64,000 bases of DNA, taken from contig CAWFFN010000007.1 of NCBI GenBank assembly GCA_963815115.1, positions 192,001-256,000 of the forward strand, written 5' to 3'. Numbering within the stretch: position 1 is the stretch's first letter; each line of letters opens with the position of its first letter. The position numbers and the translations under genes were made by a program. This DNA comes from an uncultured delta proteobacterium (GTDB lineage: Bacteria > Desulfobacterota > Binatia > DP-6). The notes below the pieces were generated by a model. That model saw only the letters and a list, made by a program, of their open reading frames with translations, made no database searches and was not told the DNA's origin. Below, piece after piece: positions 3 to 49,590 of the stretch.

Positions 3-557
3 TATCTCCCGGAGGTGATGCGCGGCGTCGCCGTCACCACGGGTCACTTCGTGCGCAACATGGCCCTGCACACGCTGCATCTCTTCGGGCTGGCGCGGAC
101 GCGCGCGGCGATGGTCACGGTCCAGTACCCCGAGCAGCGCAAGACCTACTCGGAAGGCTACCGGGGAGCGCACCGGCTGACCCTCAAGCCCGACGGCTCG
201 GTGCGCTGCACGTCGTGCTTCCTGTGTGCCACCGCCTGCCCGGCGAAGTGCATCCACATCGAGGCCGGGGAGCACCCCAGTCCAGAGGTCGAGAAGTTCC
301 CCGTGCGCTACGAGATCGACACCTTGCAGTGCATCTACTGCGGGATGTGCGTCGAGGCGTGCCCGTGCGATGCGATCCGGATGGACACCTTCGTGCACCC
401 GCGTATCTGGGGATACCAGCGCGAGGATTTCGTCGAGACCAAGCAGGTGCTGATGGAGCGCTCGCACATCCTCGAAACGCGGGGCCGGGAAGCGCTCATG
501 GACGACATGCTCGGCGGCTATCGCGAGGATGAGTCGCTCGCGGCGGAGGGCCGGTGA
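3..557 (+). CDS. nuoI: NADH-quinone oxidoreductase subunit I (5'-partial, begins before the window)
   Basis: Two CxxCxxCxxxCP motifs (CTSCFLCATACP, CIYCGMCVEACP) and TVQYPE..RGAHRL; frame is open back to the window edge (YLPEVMRG). Confidence 0.9.
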   Translation, partial: YLPEVMRGVAVTTGHFVRNMALHTLHLFGLARTRAAMVTVQYPEQRKTYSEGYRGAHRLTLKPDGSVRCTSCFLCATACPAKCIHIEAGEHPSPEVEKFPVRYEIDTLQCIYCGMCVEACPCDAIRMDTFVHPRIWGYQREDFVETKQVLMERSHILETRGREALMDDMLGGYREDESLAAEGR

Positions 558-778
558 TCCTGCTCGCGCTCTGGCGGCGGGGCCTGCTGCGGCGAGCCGA
601 CCGGGAGAAGATCGAGCTCTTCCTCGGCCGCGCGCGCGACCCGCTCCAGCTCTCCCGGCGCTACCCCCTGTGGCGCAGCCTGGGGCTCTTCCGGCTCCTC
701 GTCTCGCCGGCGTACGCGGCCGGCGTTGCGCGCTGGCTCGAGTACCGCATGAACCTCTTTGACGGCATCGAGGGATGA
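554..778 (+). CDS. small hypothetical protein (74 aa)
   Basis: GTGA overlap with nuoI stop and ATGA overlap with the next gene, i.e. coupled on both sides. Confidence 0.6.
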   Translation: MILLALWRRGLLRRADREKIELFLGRARDPLQLSRRYPLWRSLGLFRLLVSPAYAAGVARWLEYRMNLFDGIEG

Positions 779-1977
779 CGATGGCGAAGACGTATCAGCA
801 GATCATGACGGAGGCGAAGCAGATCGTCCCGGAGATCTCGCCCGACGAGGTCAAGACACGCCTCGCCAGCGCGAAGAAGCCGGTCGTGCTCGACGTGCGC
901 GAGCGCGAGGAGGTTCGCCAGGGCTACGTACCCGGTGCGCTGGCGATCCCGCGTGGCTTCTTGGAGATGCGTGTCGAGGAGTCGCTGCCGGACAAGAGCA
1001 CGCCGATCGTGGCCTACTGCGCCGGCGGCACGCGCTCGCTGCTCGCGGGCCGCATCCTGAAGGAGCTCGGCTACCAGGACGTGGCGTCCATGCGCGGCGG
1101 CTTCACGGCGTGGAAGAACCAGGGGCTTCCGGTCACCGAGGACCGGCAGTTCACCGCCGAGCAGCAGATCCGCTACAGCCGCCACTTCCTGCTTCCGGAG
1201 GTGGGCGAGGCGGGCCAGGCGAAGCTGCTCGACGCCAAGGTGCTGTGCATCGGCGCCGGCGGGCTCGGCTCGCCGGCGGCGTTCTACCTGGCCGCCGCCG
1301 GCGTCGGGACCATCGGCATCGTCGACATGGACGTGGTCGATCTCTCCAACCTGCAGCGCCAGATCCTGCACACCAACGATCGAATCGGCATGCCGAAGGC
1401 GGAGTCGGCCCGTCTCACGCTCCAGGCCCTCAACCCCGACGTCCGCGTGCTCGAGTTCCGCGAGCGCCTGTCGTCGGAGAACGCCTTCCGGCTCTTCGAG
1501 CAGTTCGACATCATCGTGAACGGCTGCGACAACTTCCCCACCCGCTACCTGGCGAACGACGCCTGCGTCATGCTGCACAAGCCGCTCGTCGACGGTGCCA
1601 TCTGGCAGTTCGAGGGCCAGGCGACGGTGTTCGATCCGCCGGAGGGTCCGTGCTACCGCTGCCTCTTCCCGGAGCCGCCGCCGCCCGGCGCGGTGCCGTC
1701 GTGCGCCGAGGCGGGCGTCCTCGGCGTGCTGCCGGGCATCGTGGGCTCCGTGCAGGCGCTCGAGGCGATCAAGCTGATCCTCGGCATCGGCAAGCCGTTG
1801 CTCGGGCGCATGATGCACTTCGACACGCTGGCGGGCGACGTCCGCTTCCTGAAGCTGCGGCGCGATCCCAAGTGCGTGGTGTGCGGCGAGAACCCGACGG
1901 TCAAGAAGCTGATCGACTACGAGGTGTTCTGCGGCCTCGCCGACCCGGGCCAGCCGGCGCGCCACCACGCGGCGTGA
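775..1977 (+). CDS. moeB: MoeB/ThiF adenylyltransferase with N-terminal rhodanese domain
   Basis: Rhodanese LDVRE and CAGGTRS loop; RYSRH, GAGGLGS, SNLQRQ, CYRC and CVVC zinc motifs. Confidence 0.92.
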   Translation: MTMAKTYQQIMTEAKQIVPEISPDEVKTRLASAKKPVVLDVREREEVRQGYVPGALAIPRGFLEMRVEESLPDKSTPIVAYCAGGTRSLLAGRILKELGYQDVASMRGGFTAWKNQGLPVTEDRQFTAEQQIRYSRHFLLPEVGEAGQAKLLDAKVLCIGAGGLGSPAAFYLAAAGVGTIGIVDMDVVDLSNLQRQILHTNDRIGMPKAESARLTLQALNPDVRVLEFRERLSSENAFRLFEQFDIIVNGCDNFPTRYLANDACVMLHKPLVDGAIWQFEGQATVFDPPEGPCYRCLFPEPPPPGAVPSCAEAGVLGVLPGIVGSVQALEAIKLILGIGKPLLGRMMHFDTLAGDVRFLKLRRDPKCVVCGENPTVKKLIDYEVFCGLADPGQPARHHAA

Positions 1978-2003
1978 GCCTCGGCCGCGGCTGAGACCGA
2001 GCG

Positions 2004-3347
2004 CTACGCCTCCGCGGGCTCGATGTTCTGATTGAGCCGGAAGAGGTTGGTCGGGTCGTAGGCTCGCTTGACGACGCGCAGCCGCTCGTACGCCGATCCG
2101 TATGCCGCCCGCACGCGGGCATCCTCGCCGTCCGCCAGGTAGTTCGAGTACACACCGCTCCCGAAGTACGGCGCCATGGCATCGGAGAAGCCGCGTGCCC
2201 ACGCCCCCGATGCGTCGGCGTGTTCCGGCTCCATCCAGATCGCGAGGGCCGCGAAGTTGTACGCCTCGGCCCGGTGGCTGAACGCGGCATCCCGGGCCCG
2301 CGTCGCGGCGCCGTGGAAGTGTTCCACGAAGAACGCCCCGAGCATGGGCGGCACGGCGGCGCCGTAGTCCACCATCGCCCCGATGGCGTCGTCGCCGAGC
2401 CCGCGCAGGAAGCTGCTGCGAGCATACGCCGCGGTGCGAATCGGTGGCGGGCTCAGGAGCTGCTGCATCTCGAGGTAGGGCATCGTCCGGAGATCGACGG
2501 TGTGGGGGCTGCCGAAGGTGGCGAGGGGTGCGAGGGCGGTCTCACCCCGCGCCGGATCGCCGCACCAGCACGCCGCGACCGAGAAGGCCGGACCGGCGGC
2601 GAGGGGGAGGACCCCCGCGAAGGCGGTGAGCTCGTCGGGCGCTTCCGAGGTGAACTCGCGATAGGCGCGAAGGACCTGGGCGGCCTCCGGGAACGGATAG
2701 CTGACGAAGCCGCCGTGGACGGTCGCGATCGGGTGGAGGCGGAACTCGAAGCCGGTGACGACGCCGAAGTTGCCGCCGCCGCCGCGCAGTCCCCACAGCA
2801 GATCGGGATGCTCCTCGCCGGACGCCCGCAGCAGCCGGCCGTCCGCGGTGACCACGTCGGCGCCGAGCAGGTTGTCGCAGGCCAGTCCGTACTTCCCCAT
2901 GAGCCAGCCGAGCCCGCCGCCGAGGGTGAGGCCGGCGACCCCGGTCGGCGGCGCCGTGCCCATCGGGGTGGCGAGGCCGTGGAGGTGCGTCGCCTGGTCG
3001 AGATCCCCGAGGGTGCAGCCGGCACCCACCTGGACGACTCGCCGCACCGGGTCGACCACCACGTCCCGCATCGGAGAGCAGTCGATCACGAGGCCGCCGT
3101 CGCAGGTCGCGTGACCCGAGAAGCCGTGGCCGCCTCCGCGGACCGCGATCGAGAGGTCGTGGCTGCGCGCGAACTCGATCGCACGCTGCACGTCGCCGGG
3201 ATCCGCGCAGCGCACGACGGCCGCCGGTCGCCGATCGATGCCCGCGTTCCACACGGCACGCGCGTCGTCGTAGCCGGCGTCTTCGGGGAGGACGACGTGC
3301 CCCCCGAGCGAGGCGGCGAACCGTCGAACCGTCGCGTCGTCGAGCAT
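2004..3347 (-). CDS. FAD-binding oxidoreductase, berberine-bridge/VAO family
   Basis: RGGGH flavinylation motif, GLTLGGGLG, RGGGGNFGVVT, C-terminal YDPTNLFRLNQNI. Confidence 0.92.
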   Translation of the reverse strand: MLDDATVRRFAASLGGHVVLPEDAGYDDARAVWNAGIDRRPAAVVRCADPGDVQRAIEFARSHDLSIAVRGGGHGFSGHATCDGGLVIDCSPMRDVVVDPVRRVVQVGAGCTLGDLDQATHLHGLATPMGTAPPTGVAGLTLGGGLGWLMGKYGLACDNLLGADVVTADGRLLRASGEEHPDLLWGLRGGGGNFGVVTGFEFRLHPIATVHGGFVSYPFPEAAQVLRAYREFTSEAPDELTAFAGVLPLAAGPAFSVAACWCGDPARGETALAPLATFGSPHTVDLRTMPYLEMQQLLSPPPIRTAAYARSSFLRGLGDDAIGAMVDYGAAVPPMLGAFFVEHFHGAATRARDAAFSHRAEAYNFAALAIWMEPEHADASGAWARGFSDAMAPYFGSGVYSNYLADGEDARVRAAYGSAYERLRVVKRAYDPTNLFRLNQNIEPAEA

Positions 3348-3409
3348 GTCGTCTCATCCCGCACTCGCGAAGACGGGTCAAATCTTCGACCGTGGACGGC
3401 GACACTCGG

Positions 3410-3952
3410 TCAACCGGCCTTGATGAACGTCGCGGCGTGGGTGCCGGCGACCGCGTACTTCCGCTCGAACTTGGAGAGCGGCCGCATCGGCGGCGCCGTG
3501 CCGGGCGTCAGACCGGCGGCGGCGAGCTGCCGGCTCATGCGCTCGTGCAGCAATGGCAGGTCGGTCGCGATGTGCACCAGACCTCCCGGGACGAGCGCGC
3601 GGGCCATCGCGCGGGCGAGCTGCGCATCGTCGAAGAGGCGACGGTGCCGGTGGCGCGTCTTCGGCCAGGGGTCCGGGAAGTAGACGTGGAAGGCTGCCAC
3701 CGACCCCGGGGGAACGAGCCGGCCGACGATGCACCGGGCATCGCCCGCGACCACACGGACGTTCGACAGCCGGCGCCCCACGGCCCGGGCGTCGAGGGCG
3801 CCGGCCAGGCCGACCGAGTGCTCGACGGCGAAGAAGTTGATGTCCCGCCGGGTGGCGGCGAAGGCGAGCAGCACCTCGCCGCGTCCCGGACCGATCTCGA
3901 TCTCGACCGCACGGGCGTTGCCGAACACGCCCAGCCAGAGGTCGGTCTCCAC
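3410..3952 (-). CDS. trmB: tRNA (guanine-N7)-methyltransferase
   Basis: EIGPGRG SAM motif, YFPDPWPKTRHRHRR, ATD, SKFERK. Confidence 0.88.
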   Translation of the reverse strand: METDLWLGVFGNARAVEIEIGPGRGEVLLAFAATRRDINFFAVEHSVGLAGALDARAVGRRLSNVRVVAGDARCIVGRLVPPGSVAAFHVYFPDPWPKTRHRHRRLFDDAQLARAMARALVPGGLVHIATDLPLLHERMSRQLAAAGLTPGTAPPMRPLSKFERKYAVAGTHAATFIKAG

Positions 3953-3963
3953 GAGCCATGCCC

Positions 3964-5730
3964 TCAGCGGCGGACCCCGGCCCGGCTCGATGCCGGCGTC
4001 CGAGGGCGCACGTTCCCGCCCTTCAGGCCGGCCAGGAACTGGGGGAGCGGCCTGGTGTTCAGCACGTCCGCCGCGGCCACCCAGCCGCGGCGGGCCTGGT
4101 CGATGCCGTAGCGCTCGCCGAACGCGAGCTGCGCGACGCTGTGCGCGTCGGAGTCGATGACCAGCTTGATGCCCGCCGCGACCGCCCGGCGGAGATGCTC
4201 GTCGCGCAGGTCGAGCCGCTCCGGGTAGGCGTCCAGCTCGAGCACGGTGCCGGTCTCGTGCGCCGTGGCGATGATCGCGTCGAGGTCGACGTCGTACGGC
4301 TCGCGCTTCTGGAGGATTCGCCCGGTGGGGTGGAAGAGGATGTCCGCGTTCGGATTCCGCATGGCGCGCAGGATGCGCGCCGTCTGCTCCGCGCGCGGGA
4401 GATGGAAGTGCGAATGGACGGCGATGCCGACGACGTCGAGTGCCGCCAGGGTCTCGTCGTCGATGTCGAGCGTGCCGTCCCGGGTGATGTTCACCTCGGC
4501 GCCGGCGAGTATCCGGATGCCGTCGAGGCCCTCATTCAGACGCGCGATCTCGCGCATCTGGCGCCGGAGCTTGGCGGCATCGGAGCCGCCGGTCATGGCG
4601 AGGCTGACGGTGTGATCGGTGATGGCGATGTACTCCATGCCGAGGTCACGCGCGCCTCGCGCCATCGCCTCGAGTGAATCGGCACCGTCGGTCCAGTCGG
4701 TCTGCGTCTGCAGGTCGCCGTGCAGCGTGCCGTGCTCGATGAGCTGCGGCAGGCGGCCGGCGAGCGCGGCCTGGATCTCGCCCTGATCCTCACGCAGCTC
4801 GGGCGGCACGAACGGGAGCCCGAGACGCTCGTAGACCTCGCGCTCGGTCCGTCCGGCCACCCGGCGCGTCCCGCGGAAGAGACCGTACTCGTTCAGCTTG
4901 AGGCCCTGCTGGATGGCGAGCTGGCGGAGGCCGACGTTGTGCGCCTTGCTCCCCGTGAAGTAGAGCAGGGCGGCGCCGAGGCTCTCGGCGAGGACGACCC
5001 GGAGGTCGACCTGGAACCCCGAGCGCAGCCGGACGCTGGAGCGCGTGCCGCCCCTGCCGAGGACGCGCTCGACCTCGGGCAAGCCGACGAAGGCGTCCAT
5101 CACCGCGGCGGGACGGCGCGCGACCGCGAGCAGATCGGCGTCCCCGATGGTCTCGCGGCGACGACGGATCGATCCGGCGATGACCAGCTGCGCGACACCG
5201 GGTACCGCCGCGAGGCGGCGGGCGAGGTCATCGACCACCGGCAGCACGGCAGACAGCGGATGCCGACCGGCGGCGGCCGCTCCGGACAGCGCCCGCAGGA
5301 TGTTCTGCTCGCTGCGCTCGCCGAAGTGGGACAGGGCCCGGACCTTGCCGGCGCGGGCGGCGGCTGCCAGATCGTCCACGGTTCGCACGCCGAGCGTCTC
5401 GTAGAGCGTGCGGACCGCCTTGGGTCCGATGCCCTCGAGCGCGGTGAGCCCTGCGATGTCGACCGGGAGGCGCTGGCGGTACTCCTCGTGGAGTGCGCAC
5501 CGCCCGGTGGTGAGCAGCTCCTCGAGCTTCTGCGCCATCGAGGCTCCGATGCCGGGGATGGCGCGCAGGACTTTCGGGCCGCGTTCGCGGAGGACGTCGG
5601 CGAGCGGACGGTCCTGTGACTCGATCGCCTGCGCCGCCTTCTCGTATGCCCGAGGCTTGAACTGGATGCCGTCCATCTCGAGGTAGGCGGCGAGGTCGCG
5701 GAAGACACGAGCCAGTCGGACGTTCTCCAT
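3964..5730 (-). CDS. polX: DNA polymerase/3'-5' exonuclease PolX (PolX core plus PHP domain)
   Basis: HhH motifs, GSIRR..ETIGDADLL, VDLRV, YFTGSKAHN, PPELRE; PHP motifs TDH, HPTG, SDAH. Confidence 0.95.
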   Translation of the reverse strand: MENVRLARVFRDLAAYLEMDGIQFKPRAYEKAAQAIESQDRPLADVLRERGPKVLRAIPGIGASMAQKLEELLTTGRCALHEEYRQRLPVDIAGLTALEGIGPKAVRTLYETLGVRTVDDLAAAARAGKVRALSHFGERSEQNILRALSGAAAAGRHPLSAVLPVVDDLARRLAAVPGVAQLVIAGSIRRRRETIGDADLLAVARRPAAVMDAFVGLPEVERVLGRGGTRSSVRLRSGFQVDLRVVLAESLGAALLYFTGSKAHNVGLRQLAIQQGLKLNEYGLFRGTRRVAGRTEREVYERLGLPFVPPELREDQGEIQAALAGRLPQLIEHGTLHGDLQTQTDWTDGADSLEAMARGARDLGMEYIAITDHTVSLAMTGGSDAAKLRRQMREIARLNEGLDGIRILAGAEVNITRDGTLDIDDETLAALDVVGIAVHSHFHLPRAEQTARILRAMRNPNADILFHPTGRILQKREPYDVDLDAIIATAHETGTVLELDAYPERLDLRDEHLRRAVAAGIKLVIDSDAHSVAQLAFGERYGIDQARRGWVAAADVLNTRPLPQFLAGLKGGNVRPRTPASSRAGVRR

Positions 5731-5757
5731 CGCAGCGAGCGGGCGGGACGCGATCCC

Positions 5758-6672
5758 CTAGCCGAGGAACTCGAGGAGCCAGCGGTTCACCAGCTCGGGC
5801 TGCTCCTGCTGCACCCAGTGACCGGAGTCGGCGATGTAGCGCACCTCGAAGGGGCCGCTGAAGAGCGGCTCCATGCCGACGGTCAGCTCCTTCCCCAGCG
5901 CGACGTCCTGCTCGCCCCAGACGAGGAGCGTGGGAGCCGCGATGGTCGGCCAGTCGGCGAGGGCACGCCGCGGCGGCGCCATCGGTCGTTCGCCGTAGAG
6001 GAAGTGGCGGGCGGGCTCGGGCAGGTTGGCGGGATCGCGGAAGGCGGCACGATAGTAGTTGATCGCGCTGTGGAGCGCCCCCGAGTGCATCGCCGCATCG
6101 CGCAGCCGCCGCAGGTCGTCCTCGCTGATCGCGTCGGTGCGCACGGTCGAGCGCCGGATGGCGCGGCCGATCGCCCGGGCGTGCCCGAGGCGGAGGAGGA
6201 ACTCGGGGAGCCAGGGAATCTGGAAGAAGAACATGTACCAGCTACGCGCGAGCTGGCGCGGACTGCCCCGCAGGTGCTGCACCATCATCGCGGGATGCGG
6301 GCAGTTCAGGACGGCGAGCTTGCGGACCACCGCCGGCCGCTCCATGGCGACGGACCAGGCGACCGCGCCGCCCCAGTCGTGCCCGACGATCGCCGCGTCG
6401 CGCTCGCCCAGGGCGTGGATCAGGCCTTCCACGTCGGCGATCAGCTCGGGCATGGCGTAGGCCGCCACGCCGGCAGGCTTCTCGCTCTCGTTGTAGCCGC
6501 GCAGATCCGGTGCCACGACCCGGAAGCGCGTCGCCAGCGCCGGAATCTGGTGGCGCCACGAGTACCAGAACTCGGGAAAGCCGTGGAGCAGGATCACGAG
6601 CGGTCCGTCACCGTCGACGACGCAGTGCAGGCGCACGCCGTTCGTGCGTATCTGTCGGTGCTGGAGGGGCAT
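5758..6672 (-). CDS. alpha/beta hydrolase, epoxide hydrolase-like
   Basis: HGFPE, GHDWGG (Asp nucleophile), SWYMFFFQ, GHWVQQE. Confidence 0.92.
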   Translation of the reverse strand: MPLQHRQIRTNGVRLHCVVDGDGPLVILLHGFPEFWYSWRHQIPALATRFRVVAPDLRGYNESEKPAGVAAYAMPELIADVEGLIHALGERDAAIVGHDWGGAVAWSVAMERPAVVRKLAVLNCPHPAMMVQHLRGSPRQLARSWYMFFFQIPWLPEFLLRLGHARAIGRAIRRSTVRTDAISEDDLRRLRDAAMHSGALHSAINYYRAAFRDPANLPEPARHFLYGERPMAPPRRALADWPTIAAPTLLVWGEQDVALGKELTVGMEPLFSGPFEVRYIADSGHWVQQEQPELVNRWLLEFLG

Positions 6673-6736: not shown

Positions 6737-7510
6737 ATGGCCTTCGAGTTCATCCGCTACGAGACCCACGATCACGTCGCCCGCGTCACCATCGACCGAC
6801 CGCAGGTCATGAACGCCCTGCACCCGGCAGCGAACGACGAGCTGGCCAGGGCGTGGGACGACTTCGCGGCCGACCCCGAGGCGTGGGTGGCCATCCTCAC
6901 CGGCGCGGGCGAGAAAGCGTTCTCCGCGGGGAACGATCTCAAGTGGACGGCGGAGCACGGCATGCCGCGCATGCCGGCGACCGGATTCGGCGGCATCACG
7001 GCGCGCTTCGATCTCTGGAAGCCGGTCATCGCCGCCGTGAACGGCTTCGCCCTCGGCGGCGGGCTCGAGATCGCCCTGGCGTGCGACGTCATCGTCGCCG
7101 CCGAGCACGCCACGCTCGGCCTGCCCGAGCCGCGCGTCGGGCTGATGGCGGCGGCCGGCGGCGTCCACCGGCTGCCCCGGCACATCCCCCTCAAGGTGGC
7201 CATGGGCATGATGCTCACCGGGAAGCCCATCACGGCCCCGGAGGCGCTCCGGCTCGGGCTCGTCAACGAGGTGGTCCCATCGGCGAAGCTCATGGAGGTG
7301 GCCGAGCGCTGGGCGCGCGAGATCGCCGAGTGCTCGCCGCTGTGCGTGCAGGCGACGAAACAGGCCGCGCTCCAGGGTCTGGGCAAGCCCCTGCAGGAGG
7401 CGCTCACGACGGCGTACGAAGCAGTGGGACGCCTGTGGGCCAGCGAGGACTCGAAGGAAGGACCGCTCGCCTTCGCCCAGAAGCGCAAGCCTCGCTGGAC
7501 AGGGGCCTAG
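6737..7510 (+). CDS. enoyl-CoA hydratase/crotonase family protein
   Basis: FSAGNDL, AAVNGFALGGGLE, LPEPRVG, FAQKRKP. Confidence 0.93.
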   Translation: MAFEFIRYETHDHVARVTIDRPQVMNALHPAANDELARAWDDFAADPEAWVAILTGAGEKAFSAGNDLKWTAEHGMPRMPATGFGGITARFDLWKPVIAAVNGFALGGGLEIALACDVIVAAEHATLGLPEPRVGLMAAAGGVHRLPRHIPLKVAMGMMLTGKPITAPEALRLGLVNEVVPSAKLMEVAERWAREIAECSPLCVQATKQAALQGLGKPLQEALTTAYEAVGRLWASEDSKEGPLAFAQKRKPRWTGA

Positions 7511-7515
7511 CAGAG

Positions 7516-7800
7516 CGACCCGAGACTCCGTCTCGGGTCGAGAGTGAAGGCGAACGTGTGGCGTTCGGTGGATTGGGCGGACGCCGTGCCGCGGCCGGCG
7601 AAGCCGGCGCGGCAAAACGTGACACGCCCGACGTTCCAGCCCAATCCGTCGTGTGCCCCCCGCACCGTGCCGTCTTGGCTATCCGGTCGTGCTCCGGTCG
7701 CTCTGCTGCGGCGGCTTCGCCGCCCGCGGCATGACGGCCGCAGTGTTCATCACGTCTCACCCTCGCTTTCCGTCTCGACCCGAGACGGAGTCTCGGGTCG
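7516..7800. repeat. ~285-bp symmetric four-hairpin REP/MITE-like element, copy 1
   Basis: Terminal CGACCCGAGAC-TCC-GTCTCGGGTCG (7516-7540) and its exact reverse complement (7776-7800); inner hairpin pair at 7587-7614 and 7704-7731; homologous to 54720-55005. Confidence 0.85.
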
Positions 7801-7805
7801 CGCTC

Positions 7806-8375
7806 CTACTCGCCCTTGGCGCGCGACAGGTACGCCCCCGTCTCCGTGTCGACGCGGATCAGGTCGCCCTCGTTGACGAAGTTGGGCACCTGGACGATGA
7901 GGCCGGTCTCGAGGGTGGCGGGCTTGAGGGCGTTGGTGACCGTGGCGCTCTTGAGCCCCGGGGCGGTCTCGACGATCTTCAGATCGACGGTCTTCGGCAG
8001 GCTCACGCCGATCGGAGTGGTGTCGAAGAACTCGATCTGGATGCGCGAGTTCGGCGTGAGGTAGTTGACCGCGTCGCCCAGCGCCTCGCGGTCGAGCGCG
8101 ATCTGGTCGTAGGTCTCGGTGTTCATGAAGTGGTAGTGCCCGTCCTCGTAGAGGAATTCCATCTCCTGCTGGTCGAGGGTGGCGCGATCGACGCGATCCT
8201 CCGAGCGGAAGCGGTGCTCGGTCTGGGTGCCGGTCTTCAGGTTGCGCAGCTTGCTCTGCACCATGCCGCGCCAGTTGCCCGGCGTGACGTGTGTGATGCT
8301 CATGACGCGCCAGAGCGCGTTCTCGTGCTGAATGGTCATGCCCGCGCGGAGCTGCGTGGCGGGAATCAACGGCAT
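7806..8375 (-). CDS. efp: translation elongation factor P
   Basis: HVTPGNWRG loop, KPATLETG, VPNFVNEGD, YLSRA. Confidence 0.96.
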   Translation of the reverse strand: MPLIPATQLRAGMTIQHENALWRVMSITHVTPGNWRGMVQSKLRNLKTGTQTEHRFRSEDRVDRATLDQQEMEFLYEDGHYHFMNTETYDQIALDREALGDAVNYLTPNSRIQIEFFDTTPIGVSLPKTVDLKIVETAPGLKSATVTNALKPATLETGLIVQVPNFVNEGDLIRVDTETGAYLSRAKGE

Positions 8376-18808: not shown

Positions 18809-18828
18809 TTCTCCCCACGTGTGGATAA
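18809..18828. promoter_or_regulatory. DnaA box(es) upstream of dnaA
   Basis: Perfect TGTGGATAA (18820-18828) plus an inverted two-mismatch box TTCTCCCCA (18809-18817). Confidence 0.7.
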
Positions 18829-20287: not shown

Positions 20288-21061
20288 CTACGCGCACGCC
20301 GCTGGGACACCCGCGTGCCGGAGGGCACGAAGCAGGTCGTCACGGTATCGGACCTGATCGAACGAGATCTCGCCGACCTCGTCCGGGTCGAGCGACTCGG
20401 CCACCAGGACCTCGAACGGTGCCGTGAGCAGGCGGACGTGGACGAGATGATCGCCGCTGTCGACCAGGCGGAACACCGCCGGCGGTAGCGCGTCGGGCGC
20501 GAACCGCAGGCTGACCGGGTCCCCCGCCGGCCGCTGGTCGAGGAGCGGCACCGCCGGGAGCCCCGTAGCCATTCCCCGTGCCAGGGCGTCGCTCTCCGCC
20601 TCGATGCCGTCGTGTCGGAGCCGCGCGATCTCGCCGGCGACGTCTGCCGGCGGCCGCGGCCGATTGCGTCGTAGCCACGGGATGGCGTGGAAGAGCGGTG
20701 GCGGAGCGGGCACGAGCTCGAGTCCCTCGAACAGATCGGGCAGCAGCGCGGCGAGCGTGGCATGGTCGCCTGCGCCGTGCGCGGCGGTCGCGGCCCGAAA
20801 GGCGGGCGAATCCCGCAGCTCCCGCAGGCGCGTCCGGAAGCGCTCGACCAGCAGGCTGCCCTCCTGCAGCAGCGGTCCGGTCGCGTCCGCCAGGAGGTGC
20901 TCGCGATGCAGACGGCGTGCCCGGTCGCCCAGGGCGAGGGCGTCCGCCCGCAGCGTCGCGAGGTCGCCACGGCTCCCGGCGCGAAACTTCTCGAGCTCGA
21001 CCAGCAGTCCGCCCGCCTCGGCGACCGCCTGCTCCAGCGCATCGGCAGCCCCGTCGTCCAT
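20288..21061 (-). CDS. hypothetical protein (257 aa)
   Basis: Best ORF of the interval with typical composition; helical N-terminal half, alpha/beta C-terminal half. Confidence 0.65.
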   Translation of the reverse strand: MDDGAADALEQAVAEAGGLLVELEKFRAGSRGDLATLRADALALGDRARRLHREHLLADATGPLLQEGSLLVERFRTRLRELRDSPAFRAATAAHGAGDHATLAALLPDLFEGLELVPAPPPLFHAIPWLRRNRPRPPADVAGEIARLRHDGIEAESDALARGMATGLPAVPLLDQRPAGDPVSLRFAPDALPPAVFRLVDSGDHLVHVRLLTAPFEVLVAESLDPDEVGEISFDQVRYRDDLLRALRHAGVPAACA

Positions 21062-21108
21062 GATCCGGCTTCTTACAACCGGGCGCGGCCTTTGCTAAGA
21101 AGGGGGCG

Positions 21109-21720
21109 ATGCCCCTCCGGTCGCGGACTCGGAGAGCGCGCCGCGCGACCATCCGCGAGGTGCTCGACATCGCCATCGAGCTCGAGAAGAAGACGATGGC
21201 GCTGTACGTCGCCTTCGTCCAGGGCTTCCCGCGGCCCGAGGAAGTGCGCAACTTCTGGTTCTCGATGGCGCGTCACGAGGCGGGGCACTGCGGCGCGCTC
21301 GCCCTGGTCGAGAGCATCGTGGAATCCGATCCGAGCCGCGCGGCGGCGGCACGGGTGTGGTTCGACGAGCATACCGTGGCACGGCTGCGGGCGCTCCTCA
21401 CCGCCTATCTGCGCGAGGTGCGGAGCGGCAGCGTGTCGCTCGAGCGGGCCTTCGAGATGGCCATCGACGTCGAGGGATCGGAGCTCGAGGACGTCGTGGT
21501 CGACATGCTGAGCGTGGTGCGAAGCCCGCGGTGGCGCGAGCGCGCCATCCAGCTCCTGCTCCACGACCTGGGTGATCTCTCCTACATGGTCGAGCGCTAC
21601 ACCAAGAACGAGGGGTTGCTGACACGGGCCGACGCGCTCCTCGAGCGCCACCTGGGAGGCCTCAAGCGGCGCCGGTCAGCGACGGCGCGGGCCGCCGGGG
21701 GGCCGCGGGCGGCGGGGTAG
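21109..21720 (+). CDS. ferritin-like/rubrerythrin-family four-helix protein
   Basis: AIELE..ALY, RHEAGH (ExxH), AFEMAIDVE. Confidence 0.75.
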   Translation: MPLRSRTRRARRATIREVLDIAIELEKKTMALYVAFVQGFPRPEEVRNFWFSMARHEAGHCGALALVESIVESDPSRAAAARVWFDEHTVARLRALLTAYLREVRSGSVSLERAFEMAIDVEGSELEDVVVDMLSVVRSPRWRERAIQLLLHDLGDLSYMVERYTKNEGLLTRADALLERHLGGLKRRRSATARAAGGPRAAG

Positions 21721-21722
21721 CG

Positions 21723-22118
21723 ATGGCCGGGGCCACGACCACGCGCCGGAACGGCCGCTCCGAGGGCGGGGCGTTCGTCACCGTGCCGATCTACCTCGAG
21801 GCGGTCGGGCGCTTGCATGGCGTGGGGCCGGGTGAGATGGCCCGCGCGTTGCGCGTCAGCCCCTCGGTCTTGCGGCGCTGGGCGCGCGGCACGCTGGTGC
21901 CATCGTGGCGGCGGCTCCGCGTGATGACCGACCTGTGGGGCGGCAGCGCGGAGCTTCTCGCCCTGGGCGCAGCGTTGCAGCGCTACTCGCGCTCCACCGG
22001 CATCTCCATCGAGGACGCGGTGCGGATGGTTCGCAGCGGCCGCCGCAACGCCCCGGAGCGCCGCACGGCCGGGCGGCGCCGCGACCGCCGGCAGCTTTCG
22101 CTGCCCATCGGAGGCTGA
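21723..22118 (+). CDS. XRE-type helix-turn-helix protein with C-terminal QLSLPI motif
   Basis: EMARALRVSPSVLRRWARGTLVPS HTH; starts 2 nt after the upstream stop. Confidence 0.75.
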   Translation: MAGATTTRRNGRSEGGAFVTVPIYLEAVGRLHGVGPGEMARALRVSPSVLRRWARGTLVPSWRRLRVMTDLWGGSAELLALGAALQRYSRSTGISIEDAVRMVRSGRRNAPERRTAGRRRDRRQLSLPIGG

Positions 22119-22121
22119 GAC

Positions 22122-22607
22122 GTGACGGGCGAGGGCATCGGTGAGGGCATCACGGAGCGCGGGCTGGCGGCGACCTCCCACGTCGAGACGGCCGAGGGTC
22201 CGGTGCGCATGTCGGAGACGCCCAACAAGGGCTTCGCCGTGCTGACGCGGCTGCCCTCGGGGCAGCTCGGCTTCCGCCAGCTGATCAAGCTCGTCTCGCG
22301 TGGTCCGGTGCCGCTGGTCCGGGTCGTCCTGAGCACGGGGCACGAGGTCCTGGCGGCACGCGGACATCCCTTCTATCGCGCCGGAATGGAGGCCGTCGCC
22401 GCGGAGCGGCTCATGCCCGGCGATCCCCTCGAGACCGCCTTCCGCTATCCCGAAGGCTACACGCCTCCGGACCTGCCGGATGCCGAGTCGAGCGCCCCGA
22501 TCCGTGTCGTGCGGGTGGAAGCGGCGGGGGAGGGCGAGGTGATGACGGGCACGGTGCGGGACACGCATGCGCTCTTCATCACGGCTGGCGTCCTCTGTGG
22601 CGAGTGA
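22122..22607 (+). CDS. stand-alone Hint (intein-fold) domain protein lacking splicing residues
   Basis: Aligns by eye with intein blocks A (GLAATSHVETAEG), B (VVLSTGHEVLAARGHPF), F (RVVRVEAAGEGEVMTGTV) and G ([10 protein letters not shown]). Confidence 0.75.
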   Translation: MTGEGIGEGITERGLAATSHVETAEGPVRMSETPNKGFAVLTRLPSGQLGFRQLIKLVSRGPVPLVRVVLSTGHEVLAARGHPFYRAGMEAVAAERLMPGDPLETAFRYPEGYTPPDLPDAESSAPIRVVRVEAAGEGEVMTGTVRDTHALFITAGVLCGE

Positions 22608-23313
22608 CGGGCTGGCGCGCCTCGAGGCCCGCCTCGTCCGCTGCCGGCGCTGCCCGCGGCTGGTCGCCTACCGCCAGCGCGTCGCGACGGAGCGCGTCGC
22701 GCGCTTCCGAAGCTGGCACTACTGGGGGCGGCCCGTCCCGGGGTTCGGCGATCCGGCGGCCCGCGTCCTGGTCGTCGGCCTTGCGCCCGCGGCGCACGGT
22801 GGCAACCGGACGGGCCGCATCTTCACGGGCGACGAGAGCGGCAACTGGCTCTTCGCTGGACTGCATCGCGCCGGGTTCGCGAATCAGCCGGCCTCCGTGC
22901 ATCGGGACGACGGGCTGGCGCTGCGCGGCGCCTGGGTGACGGCGGCGGCGCGCTGCGCGCCGCCAGCCAACCGGCCGACGCCGCAGGAGCTCGAGACCTG
23001 CCGGAGCTGGCTGCTCGCCGAGCTGGCGCTCCTGGAACGCCTGCGGGTCGTCGTCGTGCTTGGCCGCGTCGCGCACGACGCCTTCCTGGCGGCGGAGGCC
23101 GCCCGCGGCCGGATGGTGCCACGCCCGCGGCCGGCGTTCGCGCATGGAGCGGAGCATCGGCTGCCGTCGGGACTCGTGCTGCTCTGCTCCTACCACCCGA
23201 GCCAGCAGAACACCTTCACCGGCAGGTTGACGCGGCCGATGCTCGACCGCGTGCTCGGACGGGCGGCCGCGCTCGCCGAGGCGCGAGTTCCTCGTCCGGC
23301 CGAAGGGTGGTAA
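22597..23313 (+). CDS. uracil-DNA glycosylase family 5 (UDGb)
   Basis: [40 protein letters not shown]. Confidence 0.93.
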
Positions 23314-23329: not shown

Positions 23330-24205
23330 ATGAAGGGGATCATCCTTGCCGGCGGAGCAGGCACGCGGTTGCATCCGCTCACCCTCGCGGTGAGCAAGCA
23401 GCTCCTGCCGGTCTACGACAAGCCGATGATCTACTATCCGTTGTCGTCGCTCATGCTCGCGGGCATCCGCGACATCCTGGTCATCACGACGCCGCACGAG
23501 CAGGAGCCTTTCCGGCGGCTCCTGGGTGACGGCGCCCCGCTCGGTCTCTCCATCAGCTATGCCGTCCAGCCGCGGCCCGAGGGGCTCGCCCAGGCCTTCG
23601 TCGTCGGACGGCAGTTCATCGACGGCGGCTCGGTCGCCCTCGCGCTCGGCGACAACATCTTCTACGGACACGGGTTCCCGGAGAGCCTGCGGCGCGCCGC
23701 CACGCGCACGCGCGGCGCAACCGTGTTCGCCTATCACGTCCGCGATCCGGAGCGGTACGGCGTGGTCGAGTTCGACGCGGCCGGACAGGCGGTCTCGCTG
23801 GAGGAGAAACCCGCGCTGCCGCGTTCGTCGTACGCGGTGACCGGGCTCTATTTCTACGACGCCCGCATCACCGACATCGCCGCCGGTCTGCGGCCGTCAG
23901 CCCGGGGCGAGCTGGAGATCACCGACGTGAATCTGCACTATCTGCGCCTCGGCGACCTCCAGGTCGAGAAGCTCGGCCGCGGCGTCGCGTGGCTGGACAC
24001 CGGAACGCACGAAGCGCTGGCCCAGGCCTCGAGCTTCATCCAGGTCATCGAGGAGCGGCAGGGCCTCAAGGTGGCCTGCCTCGAGGAGATCGCGCTGCGC
24101 ATGGCCTACATCGGGCCGGAGGAGGTGCGTCGCGCGGCCCACGGCATGCAGCAGACGGGCTACGGACAGTACCTGCTCCGGCTGCTCGAGCAGTGGCCGA
24201 CGTAG
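23330..24205 (+). CDS. rfbA: glucose-1-phosphate thymidylyltransferase
   Basis: [42 protein letters not shown]. Confidence 0.96.
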
Positions 24206-24528
24206 ACCTGGCACGGAATCGAGTGCCCGCTGGCGACCACCGTGACCGCGCGGCGCAGGTAGAGCCGCCCCTCGTCCTCGTACACGTCCAGGGCGTGCAG
24301 CGCGTCGGAATCGAGGTCGTCGAGGACGACGCCATCGACCGCGGCGCCAGGCGAGGGATGGATCACCGGATAGCCGTGCGTGCCGACGGCGCGGATCCAG
24401 CCGTGCAGCGTCGCCGCCCGGCGCGCGAATTGGCGACCCGTGACGCGCTCGACGGACGCCGGCTCCGTGAGCGTTCCGTAGACGAACAGACGCGTCGGTC
24501 CGCGCGGCTCAGGCCGCGTTGGGCTGAT
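24160..24528 (-). CDS. gamma-glutamylcyclotransferase (AIG2-like) protein with no canonical start codon
   Basis: Open frame reads [20 protein letters not shown]; no ATG/GTG/TTG between the upstream in-frame TGA (24538-24540) and the motif; ATC at 24528 is a candidate. Confidence 0.65.
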
Positions 24529-25051
24529 GGCCGCCGCTCAGGCTGCGCTCGCGCTGGACGAGCACGTGTACGCCGCGATTCGTGAGCCACCCGAAGGTCT
24601 CACGCACGCGGCGGAGCGCCAGCTCCTCCGCGGGAGCCGGCACCAGCACCTCGAGGCTGGCGCCCGGTCCGCTCCGCAGCACGTCGTCGGCGAGCGTCTC
24701 GGCGAGGTACGGCGTGAGAACGCCGGCGCGCTCGAGCACACCTTCGGTGCCGAGCGTCGGACGCCGGACGCGCACCACCACCGGGATCGGCGGAGCTTGC
24801 GTTTCGAGACGCGCTCGCGCGAGCACGAGCGTGGCTTCGACCAGGTCGCCGTAGGTCCGGACCGGTTCCAGCACATCCTCGGGGACGACGAGGTCGAGCT
24901 CTTCCTCGATGGCGAGCGCGAGCTCGGCGAAATCGAGCGAATCTGCAGCCAGATCCTCGACCAGGGACAGCTCAGGGGACAGGGAATCCTCGGTGACGCC
25001 GAGGTGTTCCGCAACCAGCCGCCGCACTCGCGGCTCCACAAGACTCCACAT
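24509..25051 (-). CDS. acyl carrier protein domain fused to an extra alpha/beta (STAS-like) domain
   Basis: EDLAADSLDFAELALAIEEE phosphopantetheine motif, then a ~95-aa extension. Confidence 0.8.
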   Translation of the reverse strand: MWSLVEPRVRRLVAEHLGVTEDSLSPELSLVEDLAADSLDFAELALAIEEELDLVVPEDVLEPVRTYGDLVEATLVLARARLETQAPPIPVVVRVRRPTLGTEGVLERAGVLTPYLAETLADDVLRSGPGASLEVLVPAPAEELALRRVRETFGWLTNRGVHVLVQRERSLSGGHQPNAA

Positions 25052-25215
25052 ACTCACCTGCCGATCGAATTCGTTGCGTCGAAGGTTGACTCCTAGCATA
25101 CCTCGCGAGCTTCGACAGTACGCGGCGACGAGAATTCACCCGCCCGTAGCAACGCGCTGCGGCGTGCGGCGGTTGCTGGACGCTGCCACGGCGCTTCGGT
25201 ACCTTCGGACGATAC

Positions 25216-25288
25216 GCCCTCGTAGCTCAGTGGATAGAGCACCTGCCTCCTAAGCAGGGGGTCGCAGGTTCGATTCCTGCCGGGGGCA
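25216..25288 (+). tRNA. tRNA-Arg (anticodon CCT)
   Basis: Cloverleaf: GCCCTCG/CGGGGGC acceptor stem, CCTGC-CTCCTAA-GCAGG anticodon arm, GGTTCGATTCC T arm; CCA not encoded. Confidence 0.96.
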
Positions 25289-41161: not shown

Positions 41162-43321
41162 CTAGGGCACGACCGTGAACGTCGCATTCCCGGGCAGGCT
41201 GATCGAGCCCGGTCCGGGCAGATCGGCGATGCCGTCGACCGACAGGTTGCCGGTCATCGGGATGCAGAAGATGCTCACCAGGGTCGACGGATGCGGCAGG
41301 CCATCCGAGCCGTCACCCGCGGGCGAGCCCGTCTGGGTGATCTGCTCGGCGGTCGACTGTCCGAAGGCGCCAGCATTGATCTGGCCCGGACAGAAGATGC
41401 CGTCCGCGGCCGTCTGGGTAGCGGAGCCGGTCGTGAGCGGGGTCAGGTCGACCGGCAGCGTGGCGACGAAGCTCCCTGCACCAGGCATGCAGTCGAGGCT
41501 CGTCTGGTTGACGTTGGTGGTGGTGCAGGCCTGGCCCGCGTTCTCGCCGTAGCTGCAGGCGCCGCCGATGCACTGCGGGCAGGCCGTCGGCTGGCCGAGG
41601 CTCAGGAAGACGCGCGAGGCGAGGTTGATGCTGACGGACGACTCGCCCGTGAGGACGTCGAGCGTTCCGCTGCCGTCGGTCGCGAAGGTGTTGACCACGC
41701 AGGTCGAGGGGAAGCCGTTGACCGGCACCGGCGGTCCGAAGAAGCAGGTGGGGTCGAATGCACAGGCGCCCAGGAGCCCGGTGCAGTCGGCGTCGCTGGT
41801 GCACTCCACCGCCGGGTTGTTGACGCAGTGCTGGGTCGGCTGCGGGCCCGTGGTGCAGTCCGCCCGGCTGGTGCCGAGGCTGGCGATCAGGTTCACGTTG
41901 TCCGTCGTCTCGAAGATCGAGGTGGCATTCTCGGGAATGAGCGACGGGGGCTCGCTGGAAGCGCCGCCACCGATGTACAGGCAGCCGAGACCGAGCTGCA
42001 GGACCGGCATCGTGCCACCCGTGTCGGAGGACAGCTGGCCCGAGAAGGGTCCGAGCCCGACGTCCGGGTTGTTCTCATTGGGCTGCTGGCAGTCCGAGCC
42101 CACCACGGTGGTGAAGCTCAGGTGGGTGCCGAGCGGCGGAGGCTCCGTCGTGGTCGTGGTGGACGTCGTCGTCGTGGTCGTGCTCGTGGTCGGCACGGTC
42201 AGGGAGCGCGACAGCGCCTGGGCGAAGATGTCGATCGCCGTCTCGATGGGTGTGAGCTGGTCAGGGGTGCCGCACGTCTTGAGCGCGCCGTTGAAGGACG
42301 AGCCGGCCTTGGGGCCACAGCTCTCGGCCACTGCGAGTCCGGAGCTCGCGGCCTTGGACCAGCACTTCGCGACGGCCTGGGCCTTCTTGCCGACCGCGGC
42401 CATCTTCTTGCCGGCGCAGATGTCCGGGCCCGGCGCGCCGCTGCTGACGATCTGCAGGGTGCTGGCGATCATGTTGTCGACGGCGGCCTCGAACGTGGCC
42501 GGGTCGAGGTTGTCCCCGTGGCGGCCGCCGACCAGGCAATCGCCCTTGTCGCCCGCCTTCGCGAAGCCGCTGTCGAAGGCGTTGACGGCCTTCTGGATGC
42601 AGTTCGCGTCGACCGGGACGCCCTTCTGGAGCGCCTTGGAGTAGCAGGTGGCCTCGGCCTTGGCCTTCTTGCCAGCGGCGTCGATGGCGCCCTGCGCGCA
42701 CTTGCTCGGCGAGCCGGTCCCCACGATCGTGAAGCCCATGTTGTCCACGGTGAGGATCTCGACGGCGGCGAAGAGGCCGGACGTGCCGCACGAGTGTGTC
42801 GTGGTGAGGCTGACCGTCGTTGCGGGAGCGCTGAAGTCGAGGGAGATCGTGAGGCCACCGGCCGGGATGGTCGTGGTGCTGGTCCCGACCAGGGCCTGGC
42901 TCTCGTCGAAGCCCTGGAGCGTCACGGCCATCGTGCCCATGCAGTCGAGGCCGAGCGTGGTGGCGTCGAACTGGAGGTGGGTGATCGGCGGATAGAAGAA
43001 CATGGTCTCGGGCGACTGCGGGATGCCGCCGCTGCCCATCGACACGAAGCTCGCGAAGACCAAGACATTGGGCGGCGAGATACCCGGCTGGCTGCTCCCG
43101 ATGTCGAAGATCGTGCCGCCATTCTCGCCGAAGCCCATGAACTGGACGCCGAGATCGGCTTCCTCGTTGGTCGCGGGAACAGCCGTGGTGATGGACTCGG
43201 GCGAGCCGACGTTGTCGAAGTTCACCAGCACGTCGCTGGGGGAGACCGGCGTGAACTGGGCCGTCGCATTGCGGGCCAGCGCCGCCAGCACGAGGGCGCT
43301 CACGAGGAGGAATCGTTTCAT
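41162..43321 (-). CDS. secreted Cys-rich multidomain protein, tandem paralog A
   Basis: Signal peptide after GGAG SD, beta-rich N-domain, KC..AGKK..C repeats, poly-Thr linker, Cys-rich C-domain. Confidence 0.85.
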   Translation of the reverse strand: MKRFLLVSALVLAALARNATAQFTPVSPSDVLVNFDNVGSPESITTAVPATNEEADLGVQFMGFGENGGTIFDIGSSQPGISPPNVLVFASFVSMGSGGIPQSPETMFFYPPITHLQFDATTLGLDCMGTMAVTLQGFDESQALVGTSTTTIPAGGLTISLDFSAPATTVSLTTTHSCGTSGLFAAVEILTVDNMGFTIVGTGSPSKCAQGAIDAAGKKAKAEATCYSKALQKGVPVDANCIQKAVNAFDSGFAKAGDKGDCLVGGRHGDNLDPATFEAAVDNMIASTLQIVSSGAPGPDICAGKKMAAVGKKAQAVAKCWSKAASSGLAVAESCGPKAGSSFNGALKTCGTPDQLTPIETAIDIFAQALSRSLTVPTTSTTTTTTSTTTTTEPPPLGTHLSFTTVVGSDCQQPNENNPDVGLGPFSGQLSSDTGGTMPVLQLGLGCLYIGGGASSEPPSLIPENATSIFETTDNVNLIASLGTSRADCTTGPQPTQHCVNNPAVECTSDADCTGLLGACAFDPTCFFGPPVPVNGFPSTCVVNTFATDGSGTLDVLTGESSVSINLASRVFLSLGQPTACPQCIGGACSYGENAGQACTTTNVNQTSLDCMPGAGSFVATLPVDLTPLTTGSATQTAADGIFCPGQINAGAFGQSTAEQITQTGSPAGDGSDGLPHPSTLVSIFCIPMTGNLSVDGIADLPGPGSISLPGNATFTVVP

Positions 43322-43650
43322 GTCGCACTCCTTCCGCAGAATGTTCGGTTCGGTCGTTCGTCCGCCGTCGAGCGCGCGCACCGTGGCCGGCAGCGGGGAT
43401 CTGAGGGTCAGGTCAACCGACTCTCATGCATTGCCCTCCCGAAGGGGCCGGTTGCTCGCGAGGTCGGCGAGCGCGTCGAGTGCTTCGATCATCCCCAGAA
43501 CCTCCCGGCGCCTCGCGGGCACTTGGTTCACGAGGCGGCGTGCTGGGCGACCCGGTCCGGAGTGACAGCTTCGGAGTCAGGTCGGTGTGGCCGGTTTGCA
43601 GCTTCTCCGTCTGAAACCTCGTTGCAACGTGTCGCTCATCGAAGAAGACA

Positions 43651-45887: not shown

Positions 45888-46526
45888 GTCACTCTCCTTC
45901 CGGGTAGTCTGTGTACGGTCCATCTTCATCCGCTGTTGACTGCGAGACCGCGGTCGGCAGCGGGTCTCACGCCTGGGTCAGCCGGCTCTCATGCTTCGCC
46001 CTCCCGAAGGGGCCTATTCCCCGGGCGGTCGGCGGGTGGGTGTATCGGGTTCAGGCTTGGGCCCCGAACCTCCCGGCGCTTCGCGGGCACTTGGTTCGCG
46101 AGGCGGCGTGCTGGGCGACCCGATCGGGAGTGACAGCCCCAGACCATGGTCGGAGTCGATTTTCGCGAGTTTTTTCGGCTACTTTCCGGGGTCAGTGCGC
46201 AAGCTCGGCGGGAGAGTGCTCCAAGCCCGCCTACCGGCGCGAGCGCCGATCGTCGCGAGGCGCCGTCCCGTACCTTCGGGCGCCTAGAGTCATTGCGACA
46301 CGCCGATACTGACATGTCAGTTTACCGAGTGCCTGCTCTAGACGAGGCGCCGGCATTTTGTCAACGAACAATTTTGTAGAGAGTCAGAAAAAATCGTTCA
46401 TCTCGACGTGAATGGGCAGCATCGTCGCTGAGCGGATGACGACGCGCCGTGCCATCCCGACCTCGTGGGCGGCCGGCGGACCGTCGCTGTTGACACGGCC
46501 GGGCGCTCAGGGGGACGAAGGGCATC

Positions 46527-49527: not shown

Positions 49528-49590
49528 GCGGCTGCGCAACCATTCCGTGCCGCTGCAGGCGGCACAAGGGGGTTCCTGGCGCGGCGGGGC

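Follow-up and report, generated by a model that had tools for sequence, protein, structure and literature searches.

Conserved gene run near dnaA in Binatia encodes a family-5 uracil-DNA glycosylase, a splicing-dead Hint protein, and a helix-turn-helix protein with a candidate clamp-binding motif

The usual view of inteins is that they are selfish elements, and it is rare for a descendant that stands alone and has lost splicing to be conserved. The yeast HO endonuclease is a domesticated derivative of this kind, being free-standing and non-splicing, and it keeps and uses its homing-endonuclease domain. Uracil-DNA glycosylases of family 5 (UDGb) are base-excision repair enzymes with a 4Fe-4S cluster, and to our knowledge no bacterial uracil-DNA glycosylase is tethered to the sliding clamp, unlike eukaryotic UNG2 with PCNA. 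Family 5 is described, in a passage of one report, as having broad specificity (PMC9796141). Portions of a second report give QLSLPL as the tight, sub-micromolar clamp-binding peptide of Escherichia coli Hda, and QL[SD]LF as the general clamp-binding consensus (PMC12309361). An excerpt from a third presents the Arthrobacter sp. FB24 intein Arth_1007 as an inactive pseudogene that has only 66 extein residues and is without essential catalytic residues (PMC3196547). Here we describe a run of four genes, g1 to g4, in a 64,000-nucleotide stretch of DNA (hereafter the window) from an uncultured delta proteobacterium of the Binatia (assembly GCA_963815115.1, contig CAWFFN010000007.1, positions 192,001 to 256,000, forward strand). 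The last gene, g4, encodes a UDGb, and it overlaps g3, which encodes a Hint domain without the splice-junction residues of inteins. Upstream of these are g2, which encodes a helix-turn-helix (HTH) protein ending in an Hda-like peptide, and g1, which encodes a protein of plausible rubrerythrin or ferritin type. We read the run, tentatively, as a vertically inherited, Binatia-specific UDGb operon with a Hint-domain partner or regulator, a clamp-docking HTH protein, and a rubrerythrin-like protein.

A first-pass annotation, made from the letters of the window, had reported four tightly packed genes about 0.9 kb downstream of dnaA, and coordinates, spacings, and G+C content at third codon positions (GC3) all agree with this (Table 1). 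The start of g1 lies 898 nt past the dnaA stop (position 20210), and the gap is occupied by orfM on the opposite strand. Two nucleotides separate g1 from g2 and three separate g2 from g3, while g3 and g4 overlap by 11 nt from the GTG at 22597 or by 41 nt from the ATG at 22567. A genome scan with peptide patterns specific to close relatives yielded 15 loci, all in Binatia-type metagenome-assembled genomes (MAGs). In 7 of these 15 loci g4 is matched only from query residue 14–20 onward, which makes the 11-nt overlap plausible. The G+C content of the window is ~70%, and the GC3 of g1–g4 in the frames given is 0.88–0.93, like that of dnaA and of rmlA, the gene following g4; all four are therefore genes and not chance open reading frames.

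The g3 sequence had no match in Pfam, NCBIfam, or the PDB. Its family comprises 448 proteins in a database search, nearly all 150–160 amino acids in length; the 120 homologues listed are 66–92% identical and 129–169 amino acids long, and the named ones are from Candidatus Binatia. As modeled by AlphaFold2 from 26 sequences (predicted local distance difference test, pLDDT, 78), g3 has a Hint fold. In Foldseek the model matches mini-inteins, a bacterial intein-like (BIL) domain, and Hedgehog Hint, with template modeling (TM) scores of 0.67–0.84 among the top ten matches (E down to 3e-8). At E≤0.001 it has 61 matches in the PDB; those listed are all intein, BIL, or Hedgehog Hint domains, with the BIL structure 2lwy one of many.

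Relatives embedded in larger proteins were found with a g3-family profile, which was run against 1.84 billion cluster representatives at a cut-off of E≤0.001. The 142 matches consist of fragments, ~17 distant stand-alone proteins of 150–175 amino acids, and 65 proteins of more than 400 amino acids; some of the distant Hint matches are PT-HINT proteins, and the longer matches P0241, P0255, and P0271 resemble frameshifted read-through. Sixty-three of the 65 long proteins were scanned with Pfam, two being left out for size, and 24 of the 63, including the two best matches, are ribonucleotide reductases. The intein in these reductases ends at N/CGE in 13 of 14 examined and starts at NP/C in 9 of 14 (the slash marks the junction). 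In a tree built on 97 profile columns, 22 stand-alone Hint proteins are set apart from 31 embedded inteins (support 1.0), and the neighbor of the stand-alone clade is a clade of 18 that is made up entirely of reductases (support 0.77).

The residues required at both splice junctions are missing from g3. In all six profile alignments that reach the position, the invariant G14 of g3 lies opposite the intein Cys1, and S19 corresponds to block-A position 6. At the other end, g3 finishes with ...AGVLCGE; the corresponding stretch in 29 aligned inteins is ...GV[FL]V[HS]N, and the next residue is Ser, Cys, or Thr. About 13 residues precede the Hint domain and none follow it, and there is no host protein. 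Because Cys1 is replaced by Gly and both the terminal Asn and the C-extein are absent, the sequence of g3 is that of a splicing-dead Hint domain. Unlike a class 1 intein, it has no nucleophile at position 1, no terminal Asn with Cys, Ser, or Thr at +1, and no in-frame host; unlike a BIL domain, it has neither Cys1 nor a host protein. The family is under purifying selection, with a median ratio of nonsynonymous to synonymous substitution (dN/dS, NG86 method) of 0.32. We also considered S19 as the intein nucleophile, and the profile alignments to inteins, which place G14 at position 1, rule it out; the residue at the S19 position in the 120 homologues is Cys in 84, Ser in 19, Ala in 10, and Thr in 4.

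With ribonucleotide-reductase inteins and mini-inteins, g3 has in common the fold, the block-A register, the block-B His, and the hydrophobic pattern of blocks F and G. The first three C-extein residues at the NP/C...N/CGE junction of the reductases are CGE, as are the last three residues of g3. This CGE end may be what remains of a reductase C-extein, three residues having been lost, or simply a coincidence; the distant stand-alone homologues keep GVLC only and not CGE. The differences from the reductase inteins are the lack of a host, Gly in place of Cys1, Glu (or nothing) in place of the terminal Asn, and membership in a separate stand-alone clade. Like yeast HO, g3 would be a free-standing, non-splicing intein descendant, whereas it is a bare mini-Hint domain without a nuclease. 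As Arth_1007 is described, it and g3 are both intein-type domains nearly devoid of exteins that have lost essential catalytic residues. However, Arth_1007 is there a single decaying gene, while g3 belongs to a family of 448 proteins with a dN/dS of 0.32 and a fixed genomic partner. No significant similarity was detected between g3 and the intein in the window's own DnaB (E=0.29). The gene for this DnaB helicase (55891–58527, plus strand) contains a genuine intein with a LAGLIDADG homing endonuclease (Pfam DnaB, DnaB_C, Intein_splicing, and LAGLIDADG_3).

The sequence of g4 assigns it to family 5 of the uracil-DNA glycosylases. It matches PF03167 (E=3e-26, 92.6 bits), and among solved structures it is closest to chain 2d3y from Thermus thermophilus (E=2e-64, residues 22–237 aligned), which we take to be a family-5 enzyme. 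The family-4 chain 1ui0, by comparison, matches at 3e-8 only, and the score with the family-4 model TIGR00758 is 52 bits, where the cut-off is 125. The motifs GLAPAAHG and SYHPSQQN are invariant in 13 g4 orthologues; we take the GLAPA-type motif to be motif A of uracil-DNA glycosylases and the HPS-type motif to be motif B. Four cysteines (C16, C19, C120, and C135, numbered from the GTG start) are likewise invariant in 13 sequences and are the predicted 4Fe-4S ligands. T. thermophilus UDGb (2d3y, 2ddg, 2dem, and 2dp6) and g4 share the four cysteines as well as the GLAPxAHG and HPS-type motifs. What distinguishes g4 from the Thermus enzyme is its setting, as its gene overlaps that of a Hint domain and shares an operon-like run with the gene for a clamp-motif protein; we know of no such Hint or clamp-motif partners for Thermus UDGb.

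The HTH domain of g2 scores 24.8 bits against PF13560 (HTH_31), for which the gathering cut-off is 27, and many of the 340 proteins in the g2 family carry PF13560. HTH families are the only ones found in g2 with Pfam and NCBIfam, which showed no AAA+ or DnaA-binding domain, and the HTH is weakly similar to the HigA antitoxin (E=0.7). The C-terminus of g2 reads RDRRQLSLPIGG. Within it is a hexapeptide of the form Q-L-x-[LF]-P-[ILMV] that all 15 g2 sequences have (14 from the loci, one from the window), as do 116 of 120 homologues from the database. A variable linker comes before the hexapeptide, and usually two residues come after it. No other protein among 47 in the window matches the motif strictly, and shuffling of g2 produced it 3 times in 200,000. 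We regard QLSLPI as a candidate β-clamp-binding motif. Going by the Hda peptide as quoted above, the last hydrophobic residue is the sole difference between QLSLPL and QLSLPI, and the motif is terminal in both proteins. In Hda it is N-terminal on an AAA+ protein, whereas in g2 it is C-terminal on a 131-amino acid HTH protein. The description of g2 as a clamp-motif HTH protein is well founded at the sequence level, since the motif is conserved, rare by chance, and Hda-like.

The assignment of g1 is less firm, and a rubrerythrin or ferritin-like identity is plausible. E26, E57, H60, E122, D153, and D156 are invariant. Matches to TM1526 and encapsulated ferritin are weak (E~0.04), with E26, E57, and H60 aligned. 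PF02915 is the top family, below threshold, in 9 of 12 g1 orthologues (best E=0.0021), and it occurs in 15–30% of the members of neighboring clusters in the Atlas; many of the 703 g1 relatives bear the JGI label "rubrerythrin." In a weak internal repeat, E122 and D153xxD156 correspond to E26 and E57xxH60. The E...ExxH hairpin of g1 aligns with encapsulated-ferritin and TM1526 sequences. In contrast to rubrerythrin and these ferritin-like proteins, all g1 scores lie under the curated cut-offs, and HDxxD replaces the second ExxH.

The order of the genes is kept among the loci. An overlapping g4 follows g3 in 15 of 15, and g2 lies next to g3 in 13 of 14 and next to g1 in 13 of 13; the full order g1-g2-g3-g4 occurs in 13 loci. 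Every locus long enough to include it (12 of 12) has the arrangement dnaA-orfM-g1. Amino acid identity to the window is 71–88% for g1, 59–83% for g2, 63–83% for g3, and 68–86% for g4, compared with 54–76% for DnaA and 43–59% for orfM; g1–g4 are more conserved than DnaA. Values of dN/dS for g1–g4 are 0.23–0.32. Frame-shifted pieces were seen in two MAG assemblies, one in g4 (L002:6413–7109) and others in g1 and rmlA (L005:4971–5566 and 7184–8048); these are probably assembly errors and not pseudogenes.

If the run is a UDGb operon, UDGb would be translated in tight coupling with g3. The latter would come from the intein lineage, with ribonucleotide-reductase inteins as its nearest embedded relatives, and would now be non-catalytic, most plausibly as a partner or regulator of UDGb; a non-catalytic role is suggested because both splice-junction residues are lost while purifying selection is evident. 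The small and very basic g2 protein most plausibly docks on the β sliding clamp through its Hda-like hexapeptide, and docking would tie the products of the operon, or the regulation of the operon itself, to newly replicated DNA. Such an arrangement would resemble the clamp and PCNA motifs that recruit repair glycosylases elsewhere. A rubrerythrin-like, putative dimetal protein would be supplied by g1. The sequences show the genes themselves, their folds and families, the conservation of the motif, the gene order, and purifying selection; co-transcription, clamp binding, contact of g3 or g2 with UDGb, and any role of g1 are inferred. A more specific version, in which g3 is a domesticated intein serving as a stoichiometric subunit of a UDGb base-excision repair complex that g2 tethers to the clamp, and g1 protects the Fe-S cluster or senses its state, appears doubtful; it would give Binatia a machine for the replication-coupled repair of deaminated bases, encoded beside dnaA. 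Each element of the locus is of a known kind (a repair operon built on UDGb, a clamp client with a binding-type motif, and a derivative of inteins), and their function as a module is putative.

These results bear on the remaining proposals of the first-pass annotation. Its identification of UDGb and a dead Hint protein is firm, as is, at the level of sequence, that of a clamp-motif HTH protein, while the ferritin-like label finds weak backing only. It had recognized no named system in the gene set, and the set is indeed lineage-specific and undescribed; nor are the homologues scattered, an outcome that it had named as counting against its proposal, with synteny kept in 15 loci of one lineage. 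The suggested action at the replisome is narrowed to the conserved QLSLPI of g2, the only link of the gene set to the replisome, and the suggested responsiveness to metal, redox state, or damage to the ligand-like residues of g1, with no further support.

Several observations weigh against the interpretation of g1–g4 as a UDGb operon. The whole of a ~9-kb block (orf15787, a lipoprotein gene, a dsbA-like gene, dnaA, orfM, g1–g4, and an ACP-like gene) is syntenic and all loci are from one lineage, so synteny does not mark g1–g4 as a unit, and the linkage may be plain inheritance. In a Candidatus Binatus MAG (locus L012), a ~5.6-kb dlt-like cluster on the reverse strand (348–5976) lies between g2 and g3; it consists of genes for DltD, MBOAT, an AMP-binding enzyme, and a DUF4124 protein. 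In this MAG, as in the window, an ACP-like gene follows downstream of g4. The four genes therefore need not form one transcription unit. The unrelated rmlA stands in the same tight run, and does so after g4 in 8 loci only. A consensus scan matched no promoter or terminator. The g1 protein of the window scores 13.3 bits against PF02915, below the gathering cut-off of 22.8, and its AlphaFold2 model (helical, pLDDT 79) has no Foldseek match at E≤0.001; the best ferritin-type match is Dps (TM 0.38, E=0.28). The window has no dnaN and no sign change in GC skew, and the one DnaA box in it is within chance expectation. With no origin signature in the window, adjacency to dnaA is not evidence of origin position. 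An alternative is an ordinary syntenic neighborhood of four unrelated, lineage-specific housekeeping genes, which would possibly be co-transcribed and have no shared pathway or complex. The conserved 9-kb block, the rmlA inserted in the run, and the split in L012 all favor this explanation, as does tight packing, which is ordinary for the window: gaps of ≤20 nt occur in 9 of 26 same-strand neighbor pairs, 4 of the 9 being within the g1–rmlA run (from a crude 48-gene list). However, all 15 loci retain the g3/g4 overlap, L012 with its split included, g1–g4 are conserved above DnaA, and the g2 and g3 families are similar in size (340 and 448) and apparently restricted to Binatia. We consider an ordinary neighborhood somewhat unlikely.

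The Hda-type hexapeptide and HTH domain of g2 would also suit a protein that is chiefly a regulator of replication initiation or of replication-coupled transcription linked to dnaA, with UDGb, g3, and g1 as its regulon or as bystanders. It might be an analogue of the clamp-binding DnaA regulators Hda and YabA, or a repressor that is released or degraded upon clamp binding. Adjacency to dnaA in 12 of 12 loci is consistent with this, and the conserved region upstream of g1 could serve as an operator; but g2 has no AAA+ or DnaA-binding domain, and the adjacency is part of the general synteny and comes with no oriC signature, which leaves this explanation improbable. A further alternative is that g3 still autoprocesses, cleaving or transferring its short N-terminal peptide. 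The block-B His (H82) is invariant in the Binatia family, T148 and H149 are invariant, and many distant stand-alone homologues have Cys at position −1 or Ser or Cys at position 1. Class 2 and class 3 inteins, according to part of one account, work without an N-terminal nucleophile (PMC7664689). Position 1 is, however, an invariant Gly in Binatia, there is no terminal Asn or C-extein, the block-F position of class 3 is not where the sole Cys of g3 (C159) lies, and H82 is often Gln in the distant homologues. We find autoprocessing very improbable. The pairing of an XRE antitoxin-like HTH with a pretoxin-type Hint domain could suggest a mobile-element, toxin-antitoxin, or anti-phage cassette, for which the resemblance of g2 to HigA, a PADLOC mad1 match (E=0.0045), and the PT-HINT proteins among the distant matches might be cited. 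Such a cassette is largely refuted and hardly credible, since the position is fixed in all loci, the composition is like that of neighboring genes, and no toxin domain is present; a tblastn search with g3 gave no match in phage or plasmid collections, and nothing significant was found in PADLOC or PHROGs. A UDGb operon, held tentatively, is the interpretation we carry forward.

In the open-access papers searched we found no paper that pairs a Hint domain with a uracil-DNA glycosylase and nothing on domesticated inteins beside repair genes, and an HTH protein with a clamp-binding motif is not described there, apart from one general review. A whole family of dead inteins fixed beside a repair glycosylase would constitute a clear case of bacterial intein domestication, and g2, as a small protein that joins an HTH to a nearly exact copy of the Hda peptide, would add a new class of sliding-clamp client. 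A clamp-linked UDGb module, if true, would be a testable parallel to UNG2-PCNA. Should the genes share no more than synteny, what is gained is a better annotation of four Binatia genes now labeled "hypothetical."

Table 1. Positions of g1–g4 and adjacent features in the window.
Feature	Position	Strand	Description
g1	21109–21720	+	203 amino acids; rubrerythrin/ferritin-like, putative dimetal-carboxylate protein
g2	21723–22118	+	131 amino acids; XRE-type HTH protein, isoelectric point (pI) 12
g2 QLSLPI codons	22092–22109	+	C-terminal motif of β-clamp-binding type; two residues follow the motif
g3	22122–22607	+	161 amino acids, GTG start; free-standing Hint (intein-fold) domain
g4	22597–23313 (GTG, 238 amino acids) or 22567–23313 (ATG, 248 amino acids)	+	family-5 UDGb
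rmlA	23330–24205	+	glucose-1-phosphate thymidylyltransferase; TIGR01207, 473.6 bits
orfM	20288–21061	−	257 amino acids; divergent, between dnaA and g1; GC3 0.86
dnaA	18819–20210	+	TIGR00362, 444 bits; match from residue 29
Divergent control region, core	21069–21102	.	alignment of 13 loci, including the window

The spacer between the divergent orfM and g1 is 47 bp in length (21062–21108) and strongly conserved. An inverted pair of TAAGAAG elements, located 6–7 nt before both start codons, flanks a conserved TTACAAC-N11-TTTGCTAAG. A single copy of the pattern TTACAAC-N10-15-TTTGSTAAG is present in the window, where none is expected, and the pattern is kept in 13 of 13 aligned loci, the window included. 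The TAAGAAG elements are more simply explained as ribosome-binding sites (Shine-Dalgarno-like), because they are symmetric before both starts and read TAAGGAG in locus L010. The same symmetry and the same TAAGGAG rule against a leaderless promoter composed of TTACAA and TAAGAA at a distance of 17 nt. An operator or promoter could be present in the spacer along with ribosome-binding sites. No match to orfM was found in Pfam, NCBIfam, the Atlas, PADLOC, or PHROGs. A perfect DnaA box, TTATCCACA (18820–18828, minus strand), coincides in part with the GTG at which the dnaA open reading frame is listed to begin; the true start of dnaA is probably downstream of this GTG, because the TIGR00362 match begins at residue 29.

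On the other side of the run, rmlA starts 16 nt 3' of g4 on the same strand and is possibly co-transcribed with g1–g4. The ACP-like gene of the window (24509–25099, minus strand) encodes 196 amino acids, with an acyl-carrier (PP-binding) domain in the first 90 residues and a C-terminal half that has no assignment. The gene is conserved in 12 loci, where it lies beyond g4 or rmlA. Another repair gene, encoding a family-X DNA polymerase with pol-beta thumb, HHH, and PHP domains (3964–5730, minus strand), lies ~15 kb upstream. The only Rfam match at gathering level in the window is a tRNA-Arg (CCT) at 25216–25288 on the plus strand. Two adjacent open reading frames of ~735 amino acids (41162–43381 and 43722–45929, both minus strand) are without a Pfam match at E≤1e-5, although their GC3 is high (0.93). 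A Na+/H+ exchanger (47221–49539, minus strand) has a TrkA-N domain and a C-terminal fusion to a zf-UBP zinc finger, which is unusual for a bacterial transporter.

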